This document shows, one piece after another, positions 8,441 through 36,290 of a DNA stretch of 64,000 bases. Position 1 is the first letter of the stretch. The number at the start of each line of letters is the position of its first letter. The position numbers and the translations under genes were made by a program. The stretch spans positions 3,190 to 67,189 of the forward strand of contig CAZSLF010000003.1 in NCBI GenBank assembly GCA_964607805.1. Direction: 5' to 3'. The notes beneath the pieces were generated by a model. That model saw only the letters and a program-made list of their open reading frames with translations, searched no databases and had not been told where the DNA came from. Source of the DNA: an uncultured Candidatus Saccharibacteria bacterium (lineage in GTDB: Bacteria; Patescibacteriota; Minisyncoccia; Phycocordibacterales; CAIZLB01).

Positions 8441-8469
8441 GGTGCGATTATATCATTTATAGTTAGTGG

Positions 8470-8590
8470 GATTCGGTCACAAATAATTTTCTCGTCGTCA
8501 CTCGAAAATTTTCGCGACCCCGGCTCGCGGCCAGCACTACTGTGCTGGCATCCGCTCCGCCTTTCTCATCGATCCGATCTCTCGAGAAAA
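8470..8590. repeat. GC-rich 101-nt conserved element plus short hairpin, copy 2 (tRNA-Ser-associated)
   Basis: Gap-free alignment to 3865-3965. Same position relative to tRNA, terminator and downstream minus-strand ORF. Confidence 0.8.
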
Positions 8591-8591
8591 G

Positions 8592-8630
8592 ATTAAAGGA
8601 CCACAGCAGTGTGGTCCTTTAATCTTTTCT
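8592..8630. terminator. intrinsic terminator (13-bp stem)
   Basis: ATTAAAGGACCAC-AGCAGT-GTGGTCCTTTAAT followed by CTTTTCT. The loop AGCAGT resembles the loop region of the 3989-4016 hairpin (GCAG then T). Confidence 0.65.
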
Positions 8631-8632
8631 AG

Positions 8633-8723
8633 CGGAGACGGAGGGATTCGAACCCTCGAAGGCCTTTTGAGGGACCTTACCTCTTTAGCAAAGAGGCACA
8701 TTCGACCGCTCTGACACGTCTCC
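8633..8723 (-). tRNA. tRNA-Ser (anticodon GCU), type II
   Basis: Acceptor GGAGACG/CGTCTCC, anticodon arm CCTCT-TTGCTAA-AGAGG, long variable arm, T arm GAGGG-TTCGAAT-CCCTC, discriminator G. Confidence 0.9.
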
Positions 8724-17880: not shown

Positions 17881-18041
17881 AAGTAGTTAGTAAAATATGT
17901 TTAGTTGATTTGGAAAATGGCTTAATTGCTAGTTTATCCACACCAGCAAACTATATAGTTGTATAACTGCTATACTTAAAGCACCTAAGGATCTTAATTG
18001 ATCAGAAGGTTTGGTTAATTAAAATTTAGATAACGTTATTT

Positions 18042-18122
18042 ATAAATTTATAAAATGAAAAAATTACAGAATAGAGGTTTTACATTGATTGAGCTTTTGG
18101 TGGTTATTGCCATCATTGGTAT
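18042..18122 (+). repeat. 81-nt direct repeat, copy 1 (pilin promoter-proximal region and N-terminal 22 codons)
   Basis: Identical over 81 nt to 18647-18727 (ataaatttataaaATGaaaaaattacag...catcattggtat). Confidence 0.95.
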
Positions 18123-18504
18123 TCTTTCATCAGTAGTTCTTGCGTCTTTGACGACAGCTCGAACTAAGGGTCAGCAAGCAGCGGTTCAGTCTGATCTTTC
18201 AGGTATGAGATCTCAGATGGAACTTTACTACGGTTCAAATGGTAATATGTACTCACCCCTAGGAGCCACTGTGGCTGTTTGTACAGCTGGAGGTGAAACA
18301 GGACCATTTGCTGCTGCTGCAGTAAACGGTGTTTACTCACTAGCAACTGGAGCTCGATCTAAGGGTGCTACGGTTACTTGTAGAGCTACAACTACTGCAT
18401 GGCACGCATCTGGGGCAATCGGAGGAGTAACATACTGTGTAGACAGTACTGGAAACTCAACTACATCAGCGACTGTGTCAGATACTGATTTCAACTGTCT
18501 ATAA
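18055..18504 (+). CDS. type IV pilin (prepilin with N-terminal methylation motif)
   Basis: MKKLQNRGFTLIELLVVIAIIGIL: G/F cleavage site, Glu5, hydrophobic helix. C-terminal Cys pair. Confidence 0.9.
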   Translation: MKKLQNRGFTLIELLVVIAIIGILSSVVLASLTTARTKGQQAAVQSDLSGMRSQMELYYGSNGNMYSPLGATVAVCTAGGETGPFAAAAVNGVYSLATGARSKGATVTCRATTTAWHASGAIGGVTYCVDSTGNSTTSATVSDTDFNCL

Positions 18505-18558: not shown

Positions 18559-18646
18559 TTGCATTGAAAAGTTCTCCACAGGGGGTAATAATTTTGTATA
18601 TATAAGGGTTATAATTAATTTAATTATTGTTAATAGGGGTATTTAT

Positions 18647-18727
18647 ATAAATTTATAAAATGAAAAAATTACAGAATAGAGGTTTTACATTGATTGAGCT
18701 TTTGGTGGTTATTGCCATCATTGGTAT
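18647..18727 (+). repeat. 81-nt direct repeat, copy 2
   Basis: Identical to 18042-18122. Confidence 0.95.
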
Positions 18728-19172
18728 ATTATCAGCTATCGTAATGATCGCACTGAATTCTGCAAGATCAAAGGGTTCTTCTGCTGGAATTAAGTCGCAT
18801 ATGACTAGTTTGAGAAACCAAGCAGAGCTTTATTACAATACAACTGGTAATAAGAGTTATGGATTAGGAGGTTTGGTAGCTGCTGGAAACTGCCCTGGTA
18901 CATCCGCATTGTTTTTGGCAGGGACAAACAGTCTAAGTGGTATCATAAATGGTATCTTGGCAGATGGAGTTCCTGTTTTGAACACTTGGTGTGCCACAAA
19001 TGGAACAACTGTTACTAATGCAACGGCCTGGGCAGTAGCAGTAATCGATCCAGGGGTCCCTGGAGGAACATCTGCGCTATGCATTGATAGTTTAAGAGCT
19101 ACACTTAGAAGTGTTACTATAACACCAGCAAATACACCAGGTAACGCAATTAGTGCTGGATCATGTATATAG
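18660..19172 (+). CDS. type IV pilin, second paralogue
   Basis: The first 25 residues (MKKLQNRGFTLIELLVVIAIIGILS) match the first pilin exactly, 22 of them through the identical 81-nt repeat; the C-terminal domain is divergent. Confidence 0.9.
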   Translation: MKKLQNRGFTLIELLVVIAIIGILSAIVMIALNSARSKGSSAGIKSHMTSLRNQAELYYNTTGNKSYGLGGLVAAGNCPGTSALFLAGTNSLSGIINGILADGVPVLNTWCATNGTTVTNATAWAVAVIDPGVPGGTSALCIDSLRATLRSVTITPANTPGNAISAGSCI

Positions 19173-35897: not shown

Positions 35898-35968
35898 TGC
35901 GGGGAAGTGTAACAGTTGCATACAAGGCTCATAACCTTGAGGACTAGGTGCAATTCCTGGCTCCGCAA
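35898..35968 (+). tRNA. atypical tRNA-like gene with CAU anticodon (initiator-like ends)
   Basis: Acceptor TGCGGGG/CTCCGCA plus A. Anticodon arm CAAGG-CTCATAA-CCTTG. T arm CTAGG-TGCAATT-CCTGG. D arm poorly formed with no GG. Ends resemble fMet tRNA (..GCGGGG...CCGCAA). Confidence 0.45.
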
Positions 35969-36213: not shown

Positions 36214-36290
36214 GTCGACGTAGCTCAGTCGGTTAGAGCGGAGGACTCATAAGCCTCAGGTCGGTGGTTCGATCCCACCCGTCGACACCA
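36214..36290 (+). tRNA. tRNA with CAU anticodon (elongator Met or Ile2), CCA encoded
   Basis: GTCGACG-TA-GCTC-AGTCGGTTA-GAGC-G-GAGGA-CTCATAA-GCCTC-AGGTC-GGTGG-TTCGATC-CCACC-CGTCGAC-A-CCA. Confidence 0.9.

Follow-up and report, generated by a model that had tools for sequence, protein, structure and literature searches.

The stretch of DNA analysed here, referred to as the window, comprises 64,000 nucleotides (nt) of contig CAZSLF010000003.1 and contains a module that is repeated behind two different serine transfer RNA (tRNA) genes. The repeated module consists of two copies of a previously undescribed structured element without an open reading frame (ORF), which resides at the 3' ends of tRNA and transfer-messenger RNA (tmRNA) genes in ultra-small, Paceibacterota-like bacteria of the candidate phyla radiation (CPR). 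The two window copies (W1 and W2; L numbers denote the other loci compared) are independent and rather old members of this family, with intact cores and decayed flanks, and they reached their two tRNA-Ser genes independently. On balance, we lean towards reading the element as a site-specific insertion that probably integrates as a folded single strand mimicking its target. Full-text literature searches returned no published description of such elements.

A covarying core that favours the tRNA strand

A first-pass annotation, made from the sequence alone, had described two different type II tRNA-Ser genes followed on the minus strand by a hairpin, a GC-rich element, a TATAAT box and, after 6 nt, an ATG (3814 and 8440). 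ARAGORN and Rfam agree on the two genes, with anticodons ACT and GCT, and the described order holds at both loci. Its dimensions required revision: the hairpin begins 2 nt past the tRNA end in both copies and not after a spacer of 12-16 nt, and the conserved unit is longer than the proposed 101 nt, extending over 164 nt (3863-4026 and 8468-8631) from the end of the tRNA up to a stretch of 7 nt that repeats the T loop of the same tRNA. A repeat finder reports a 189-nt direct repeat with 78% identity (3865-4053 and 8470-8658). A pattern derived from the core gives two exact matches in the window with 0.00 expected, and a covariance model scores copy 1 at 121.7 bits (E ~1e-37) and copy 2 at 129.1 bits (E ~1e-40), with no third copy across the 64-kb window.

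The core consists of two hairpins, H1 and H2, which RNAalifold predicted from five sequences with 11 of 30 pairs compensated. In an alignment of 10 sequences, 89.5% of the cells pair and 18 of the 33 pairs change on both sides; this covariation was reached by none of 500 shuffles, and slid controls pair at 31-42%. H1 comprises three short helices with invariant internal loops, to which most copies add a tandem G.A. In H2, the stem is long and variable in its middle part, with a G.U close to the base that is invariant (9 of 9 sequences), and it is capped by a conserved loop of 12 nt that reads GAGUGACGACGA or GAGCGACGGCGA. Of the three core substitutions counted between the window copies, two form a compensatory change of a single pair (A-U to G-C), and the remaining one falls within a hairpin loop. 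Covariation is also seen in the long hairpin that separates tRNA and core; between copy 1 and copy 2 its stems show compensatory changes only and the loop is conserved.

The pairing also carries information on the strand. The alignment contains 17 G.U versus 6 A.C cells, and 281 canonical cells on the tRNA strand versus 270 on the plus strand. The invariant G.U, the excess of G.U and the tandem G.A thus favour the tRNA-sense strand as the folded one.

The core matches none of the RNA families with which it was compared. In Rfam 15, no family was found at the gathering threshold, and the region of copy 1 (3700-4200) returned only chance microRNA-like hairpins at E ≤10. A search of seven loci at E ≤0.05 gave tRNA and tmRNA matches and a few sub-threshold chance matches, none of them on the core. 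A search of the window for a target of the H2 loop, GAGUGACGACGAG, found only the two copies themselves. A hammerhead ribozyme (CUGAUGA, stem II, GAAA, stem III, UH) was rejected, as it is represented only by CUGAUGAG...GAAA in W1, with no stem II and no Rfam match, and at the CUGAUGAG position other copies read UCGAUGAG, GGAUGAG, GGACGAG or GAAUCGAA. The layouts of hepatitis delta virus-like ribozymes, signal recognition particle RNA and 6S RNA, taken from general knowledge of their folds, do not fit on inspection. For the kink-turn of box C/D RNAs the signs are mixed: a tandem G.A beside the junction is possible in copies with the family motif GAUGAGAAAG; a perfect RUGAUGA is present in L005 only, without D'/C' boxes, and the segment that pairs with the tRNA end (segment B, below) lies on the wrong side for a C/D guide. 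A riboswitch or 5' leader of the downstream gene was rejected, because the downstream genes differ at every locus and the W1 promoter sits between element and gene. Given this variety of downstream genes, the gene with its promoter at the ATG, which the first-pass annotation had included in the module, is not part of it.

Target genes, architecture and turnover

Homologues of the window element were found in metagenomes and metagenome-assembled genomes (MAGs) of Paceibacterota-like bacteria behind nine gene types, i.e. tRNA-Ser(ACU), Ser(GCU), Leu, Tyr, Gly, Val, Arg, Lys and tmRNA. All ten distinct copies (10/10) lie directly 3' of an intact tRNA or tmRNA gene on the same strand, and the tRNAs score 51-70 bits. 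The suggestion that the element is linked to tRNA genes and has spread independently of the tRNA sequence is thereby borne out, and its proposed specificity for tRNA-Ser or type II tRNAs is not. Over the first four loci the element appeared to be restricted to class II tRNAs (Ser, Leu, Tyr), which the copies behind Gly, Val, Arg and Lys tRNAs and behind tmRNA refuted. Because class I tRNAs are among the hosts, the association is with the 3' ends of tRNAs in general.

The loci were recovered in two ways. Genome- and metagenome-wide pattern scans, which required the loop GAGUGACGA, gave one genome match, behind tRNA-Leu(GAG) in a Candidatus Paceibacterota MAG (L004), and two metagenome contigs with the element behind tRNA-Ser(ACU) (L005, L006); L001-L003, from GC-rich genomes, and L017 were discarded as chance matches. 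Variants with the GAGCGACGGCGA loop were missed by these scans, so that prevalence is underestimated. As the core keeps two frames open, protein databases were also searched with its pseudo-translations, which led via spurious 'hypothetical proteins' to tRNA-Tyr (L010), tRNA-Gly (L011, L012), tRNA-Val (L013), tmRNA (L014, L015), tRNA-Arg (L016) and, as a reduced copy at the end of L010, tRNA-Lys. An exhaustive profile search produced 54 representative pseudo-ORFs at E ≤1e-3, which indicates a large family; the motif is present in all 26 that were inspected, and in several of these the N terminus derives from a tRNA. Among the database 'hypothetical proteins' of 40-170 amino acids, dozens are translations of the non-coding element, often fused to a translated tRNA (P0001-P0007, P0128-P0179).

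The insertions of this family span ~165-190 nt without an ORF and occur behind only some of the tRNA genes of a contig. The tRNA and tmRNA genes that bear this core (family 1) never encode CCA, and C-A-A, C-U-A or C-A-U comes next. CCA is encoded by some unit-free genes of the same contigs (window 36214-36290; L013 1952-2026) and by a tmRNA gene followed by another core (L038 4558-4927). In two genomes, a tRNA-Leu gene is directly adjoined by a free-standing gene of the LAGLIDADG type (Pfam LAGLIDADG_3): in L004 (446-1111, minus strand) this gene ends 2 nt ahead of tRNA-Leu(GAG), and in L010 (17703-18407, minus strand) it starts 4 nt after tRNA-Leu(CAA).

On the tRNA strand, all copies share one layout: the tRNA, whose last ~17-20 nt are termed A; C-A-A or a similar short stretch; the long hairpin; segment B; the core; and segment C. 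Segment B is the reverse complement of the tRNA from T loop to discriminator. At the tRNA-Gly of L011 the match is perfect over 20 nt, and the A:B duplex reaches -38.2 kcal/mol; in L013 B is likewise perfect, though split by a GCAAGC...GCUUGC hairpin; it is also complementary to the tRNA or tmRNA 3' end at L038, L047 and the tRNA-Arg of L011. In most other copies B is degenerate and often terminates in the motif GAUGAGAAAG. The expectation that B is clearly cognate in every copy failed in a comparison of cognate with non-cognate tRNAs, as the signal was clear only in L011 and L013 and marginal in W1, W2, L005 and L014; in copy 1, the cognate score of 6 compares with ≤5 for non-cognate tRNAs, a slight excess only.

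Segment C is a direct copy that runs from T-loop position 57 toward the 3' end. The copy is exact for 20 nt in L005/L006, for 19 nt in L014/L015 (20 with one flanking base) and for 19 nt behind the tRNA-Ser(CGA) of L013; it measures 10-15 nt in L010, L011-Arg and L038, and 7 nt in W1 and W2. Its first 6-10 nt track each tRNA's own T-loop variant (GAUUC, AAAUC). In copy 1, no exact direct match downstream of the tRNA exceeds 8 nt, the longest lying at an offset of 156. When 22 tRNA and tmRNA genes were scanned, stretches that repeat the tail exactly, inverted or direct, extended to 20 nt downstream versus ≤8 nt in upstream controls. Segment B can pair with C or with A; the B:C duplex, at -11.6 to -20.3 kcal/mol, is cognate-specific in L005 and L014. 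Single-sequence minimum-energy folds recover a three-way junction closed by this B:C helix (P0) in L005, L010, L011, L014 and L038. Just past segment C, the near-identical contigs L005 (~1690-1710) and L006 (~265-285) differ by the inversion of a 19-nt segment (UUUUGAACGCAGUGAAAAA versus its reverse complement).

The same layout is occupied by at least three unrelated cores. These other units, which the family-1 model does not match, again consist of a hairpin, an inverted tRNA tail, a two-hairpin core and a direct tRNA tail, and several of them share the GCAAGC...GCUUGC hairpin that splits the inverted tail as well as a last hairpin with a UGUAA loop. In L005/L006 such a unit lies in tandem, distal to the first one, and its segment C is more decayed; it is homologous to the unit behind tmRNA in L038/L039, and a related unit follows tRNA-Arg(TCG) in L011. 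Another core is found behind the tRNA-Ser(CGA) of L013. The orthologous PLDc-smpB-ssrA locus, in which SmpB is 77-98% identical, displays four different states after the tmRNA gene: family 1 in L014/L015 and L036, another core in L038/L039, a fragment of H1 only in L042/L043 and a different arrangement in L047. Short-read contigs often end exactly at the elements; the window's genome is present in one sample only, and its short-read contigs from that sample break exactly at W1 and W2. The states of the ssrA locus, the unrelated cores and the contig breaks fit insertion, accretion and decay and not a vertically fixed gene. In L016, past a reduced element behind tRNA-Arg, the 5' end of tRNA-Val, which is the next gene, has a second copy (GCGCGCGGUUAGCUC...) at ~830-870 on the minus strand.

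Proposed insertion of a folded strand and competing explanations

How an element of this layout could reach its targets is suggested by comparison with known systems. Islands that insert into tRNA and tmRNA genes restore the gene and leave a piece of its 3' end behind at a displaced position (PMC4383910), and integration sites within the T loop are known, e.g. the attB of mycobacteriophage Ms6 in a tRNA-Ala T loop (PMC1762012). Like such tyrosine-integrase islands (Islander-type), the element occupies the 3' part of a tRNA or tmRNA gene, leaves the gene intact, has a displaced direct copy of 17-20 nt (T loop to end) at its far boundary, accretes in tandem and is variably present among relatives. 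Unlike them, it measures only ~165-190 nt, has neither integrase nor ORF, contains an extra inverted copy of the target and a covarying, strand-specific core, and places one core family at ≥9 targets. Thus, gene-regenerating islands with T-loop sites explain A and C, but neither B nor the absence of genes.

A closer parallel is offered by the CTX phage, in which attP1 and attP2, in opposite orientation and ~90 bp apart, fold into a forked hairpin, and integration leaves one functional site plus two dif-like sequences (PMC3089051). As in CTX phage and integrative mobile elements exploiting Xer (IMEX), which use the host XerCD, the two target-like arms of the element are inverted and foldable into a stem that mimics the target, no recombinase is encoded, and A, B and C are the counterpart of one functional and two site-like sequences. 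The succession of functional site, inverted arm, spacer of ~95 nt and direct arm therefore fits the pattern derived for CTX-type single-strand integration. As in integron attC sites, the structure is conserved strand-specifically. In contrast to both CTX and attC, the target is tRNA or tmRNA and not dif or attI, the 'genome' between the sites is a hairpin of ~45 nt, the spacer is highly conserved in sequence, and no rolling-circle functions or recombinase were found with the element.

Two further classes share part of these features. Miniature inverted-repeat transposable elements and palindromic non-autonomous elements (Correia, RUP and the palindrome-associated elements derived from IS200/IS605, PATEs) are likewise small, non-coding, multi-copy, rich in stem-loops and associated with assembly breaks; the element differs in that its inverted repeats derive from the target tRNA tail, that it is strictly confined to tRNA and tmRNA 3' ends and that no autonomous parent is known. 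Like the tRNA-like domain of tmRNA, YrlA and Y RNAs and viral tRNA-like structures, it has a closing helix of acceptor and T-stem sequence around a structured insert, which makes processing by tRNA enzymes conceivable. Its helix is, however, a plain duplex with the exact complement and lacks the elbow of T loop and D loop, and the Rfam models for tRNA, tmRNA and Y RNA miss the core.

In the mechanism that we propose, the free form would be a small single-stranded circle or hairpin (dumbbell) with the order A-hairpin-B-core, whose A:B stem would imitate the 3' end of the target tRNA gene in its double-stranded form. With a recombinase provided in trans, strands might then be exchanged within the block between T loop and 3' end; the product would contain the restored tRNA (A), an inverted arm (B) and a direct arm at a displaced position (C). 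The conserved core could be the fork or loop recognised by the machinery, or the element's own RNA product, and the long hairpin might terminate transcription of the tRNA. The dumbbell model explains why the palindrome runs without a break from the tRNA end via the hairpin into B, why the structure is conserved strand-specifically and why ORFs are lacking. In copy 2, the hairpin forms the centre of an imperfect palindrome that reaches the tRNA T arm in one direction and segment B in the other; its 43-nt arms are 77% complementary.

Several observations weigh against an insertion of this kind. The model leaves the source of the single strand, the recombinase and the way in which A and B come to match a new tRNA species unexplained. 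No recombinase gene, integrases included, is linked to the element in the flanks of the loci, and the neighbouring genes are unrelated between loci. Pattern scans of the IMG/VR viral contigs gave no confirmed copy, as chance matches were rejected by the covariance model or by reading of the sequence. A simple integration model predicts that the remainder of the original tRNA end follows C, and in W1, W2, L010, L011 and L013 only 6-11 nt of C are followed by unrelated sequence. In the window, B:C pairing is weak (-7.0 and -4.1 kcal/mol), and P0 is weak in W1, W2 and L004. Because B and C are weak there, the case for mobility of the window copies rests on their homology to fresher copies elsewhere. 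Finally, many B segments share GAUGAGAAAG rather than an exact complement of the T loop, which suggests selection on a folded molecule and not only a recombination scar.

A blastn search of phage and plasmid collections returned nothing relevant. A gene for a large serine recombinase (L013 349-1992, plus strand) lies 2.4 kb from a family-1 copy, the only such case, and ~110 nt from the tRNA-Ser(CGA) gene with the other unit; its 3' end overlaps a tRNA-Glu gene on the opposite strand (1952-2026, minus strand).

There is a substantial chance that the element represents a new kind of minimal mobile element or RNA scaffold. We put forward a more far-reaching version only tentatively and with some doubt: the elements may be integrative elements smaller than any class known so far, ORF-less single strands of ~170-190 nt in the shape of a dumbbell, made of DNA or of RNA that is copied back into DNA, in which the central stem copies the 3' end of the chosen tRNA or tmRNA, the gene remains unharmed and interchangeable cores serve as cargo or handle. 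Equivalently, they may be a scaffold of tRNA tails that displays small structured RNAs; either would be a new CPR-specific mobile or non-coding RNA system.

The strongest competitor, which we consider rather unlikely, is a resident functional RNA: a stable non-coding RNA released from the tRNA transcript as a 3' trailer, which would not be a mobile element, although such a function can coexist with mobility. The closing helix might then serve RNase P, RNase Z, RNase III or the CCA-adding enzyme as a processing stem or tRNA-like handle, or act as a switch in which B pairs with the tRNA end or with the decoy C and thereby controls tRNA maturation. Covarying stems together with invariant loops and junctions indicate selection on the folded tRNA-sense strand. 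In addition, the family-wide GAUGAGAAAG would place a tandem G.A beside the junction, the GCAAGC...GCUUGC hairpin that splits B in some copies creates a cloverleaf-like outline, and the cores of W1 and W2 are intact though their flanks have decayed. No promoter-like site lies between hairpin and core, so that read-through from the tRNA promoter would be the simplest source of a transcript. Such read-through should, however, mostly be stopped by the perfect 21-bp hairpin with its U run between tRNA and core. As seen by eye, this hairpin has a GC tip followed by UUUUUUAUUUUUU and resembles an intrinsic terminator; a simple terminator scan calls none, because the U run itself pairs with the upstream A run. 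A resident RNA is also difficult to reconcile with presence and absence among close relatives at ssrA, with unrelated cores in the same position and with the occurrence of the element behind only some tRNAs per contig.

We rate as improbable that the element is RNA-guided or primer-directed, with B as a guide or primer-binding site for the tRNA 3' end or its gene and the core as a protein scaffold, in analogy to bridge RNA, omega RNA or a retroviral primer-binding site that is re-templated in each cycle. Re-templating from the tRNA would explain a cognate B at many tRNAs, B is perfectly complementary over 20 nt in L011 and also complementary in L013, L038, L047 and L011-Arg, and the direct repeats of ~20 nt resemble target duplications of target-primed reverse transcription. 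Against this stand the flanks of all loci, which contain no gene for a reverse transcriptase, an IS110-type recombinase, TnpB or IscB, and B itself, which lacks the CCA complement and spans the whole T loop, unlike a primer-binding site derived from a mature tRNA, and is degenerate in most copies despite an intact core.

A small RNA that is transcribed from the plus strand, convergent with the tRNA, and ends at a shared bidirectional terminator is very unlikely. The GC-rich tip on an A/U-rich stem makes the copy 1 hairpin resemble a terminator in both directions; the runs of A and U that flank it on either side could allow it to terminate plus-strand transcripts, and folds of the plus strand, too, exceed shuffles in stability (z -3.4 and -2.95). 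On this strand, however, the invariant G.U becomes C.A and the tandem G.A becomes pyrimidine mismatches, and no plus-strand promoter was called upstream of W1 or W2. Among the three links to the tRNA suggested in the first-pass annotation, the recombination site comes closest to the best-supported reading, and the convergent antisense RNA is disfavoured by the strand signals of the core (invariant G.U, G.U over A.C cells, tandem G.A). A short protein-coding gene or pseudogene, at which that annotation had also hinted, is effectively refuted: two frames are open across the core in all copies and gene callers turned them into dozens of 'hypothetical proteins', but open frames are expected at ~60-65% GC, no start codon is conserved, copy 2 is flanked by stops on both sides, and the substitutions are paired across stems and radical in amino acids (e.g. 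STVVL versus EPVGE), i.e. they track base pairing and not protein conservation.

If the preferred reading as an inserted folded strand is correct, integration at tRNA genes would extend to a unit ~hundred times smaller than the known islands, and folded strands that mimic their target, as in CTX phage, would be used beyond dif sites. If the element instead acts as an RNA, it would constitute a new family of wide distribution, with a maturation or function linked to the tails of tRNAs. In practical terms, the element breaks assemblies at tRNA genes and gives rise to the false 'hypothetical proteins' in public databases. To our knowledge, CPR bacteria, with their tiny genomes, have few recognised mobile elements or regulatory RNAs; the present analysis defines an abundant structured element with a covariance model and a clear architecture at many of their tRNA genes and at tmRNA.

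Feature coordinates and surroundings of the window copies

Table 1. Positions of the two window copies, their host genes and adjacent promoters, and of units with other cores at the compared loci
Feature	Position	Strand	Remarks
tRNA-Ser, anticodon ACU (ACT), host of copy 1	4027-4114	-	ARAGORN; Rfam tRNA 54.8 bits; CCA not encoded; discriminator G at 4028
Copy 1 hairpin	3980-4025	-	perfect 21-bp stem (3980-4000 / 4005-4025), 4-nt loop; from sequence and fold
Copy 1 segment B	3957-3979	-	RNA sense CGAAAGGAAGUGCUGAUGAGAAA; decayed reverse complement of tRNA 3' end, terminates in family motif GAUGAGAAAG; from alignments
Copy 1 core hairpin H1	3917-3956	-	three short helices, internal loops GGA/GA and GAU, AGUG tip; RNAalifold and pair counts
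Copy 1 core hairpin H2	3870-3914	-	long stem, invariant G.U near base, conserved 12-nt loop GAGUGACGACGA
Copy 1 segment C	3863-3869	-	GAAUCUC, direct copy of T-loop positions 57-60 and first three bases of the T-stem 3' strand of tRNA-Ser(ACU)
Sigma-70-like promoter TTTACC-17-TATAAT (neighbour, outside element)	3821-3849	-	6 nt before ATG 3814; 284-amino-acid protein, no Pfam match
tRNA-Ser, anticodon GCU (GCT), host of copy 2	8632-8723	-	ARAGORN; Rfam tRNA 51.4 bits; CCA not encoded
Copy 2 hairpin	8585-8630	-	perfect 21-bp stem, 4-nt loop
Copy 2 segment B	8562-8584	-	decayed reverse complement of tRNA 3' end, terminates in GAUGAGAAAG
Copy 2 core hairpin H1	8522-8561	-	RNAalifold and pair counts
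Copy 2 core hairpin H2	8475-8519	-	variable stem unlike copy 1 at most positions, pairing retained
Copy 2 segment C	8468-8474	-	GAAUCCC, direct copy of T loop and T-stem start of tRNA-Ser(GCU)
TGaTATAAT box (neighbour, outside element)	8447-8455	-	6 nt before ATG 8440; 127-amino-acid membrane protein
Other-core unit, L005	1505-1725	-	no match to family-1 model
Other-core unit, L038	4928-5125	+	no match to family-1 model
Other-core unit, L011	2381-2495	+	no match to family-1 model
Other-core unit, L013	2191-2325	+	no match to family-1 model
Other-core unit, L047	4142-4330	+	no match to family-1 model

A TGnTATAAT box had been assigned to both loci. This is a true box in copy 2; copy 1 has GTGTATAAT instead, with the -35-like TTTACC 17 nt upstream. 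The window as a whole has a GC content of ~37%, belongs to a 74.5-kb MAG contig and encodes type IV pilus proteins, a nicotinamide adenine dinucleotide (NAD)-dependent ligase and GatA.

The host of copy 1, tRNA-Ser(ACU) with the loop UUACUAA, is shared by two genomes (window 4027-4114 and L005 1903-1990, both on the minus strand) and coexists with tRNA-Ser(GCU) in the window. Apart from tRNA-Arg(ACG), bacterial tRNAs do not usually have A at position 34. A further tRNA at 35898-35968 (plus strand), missed by ARAGORN, scores 48.7 bits with Rfam and has the T loop UGCAAUU, as in the tRNA-Cys of L010.

Two other repeats are present in the window. Between short ORFs at 503-1356, a repeat of ~51 nt occurs in five copies, each centred on the near-perfect palindrome AATTGGGTATCACAAATTGTGATACCCAATT, which is operator- or terminator-like. 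An 89-nt segment at 18041-18129 and 18646-18734, with copies that are 97% identical, covers the beginning of two neighbouring type IV pilin-like genes (N terminus FTLIELLVVIAIIGIL) together with the region upstream.

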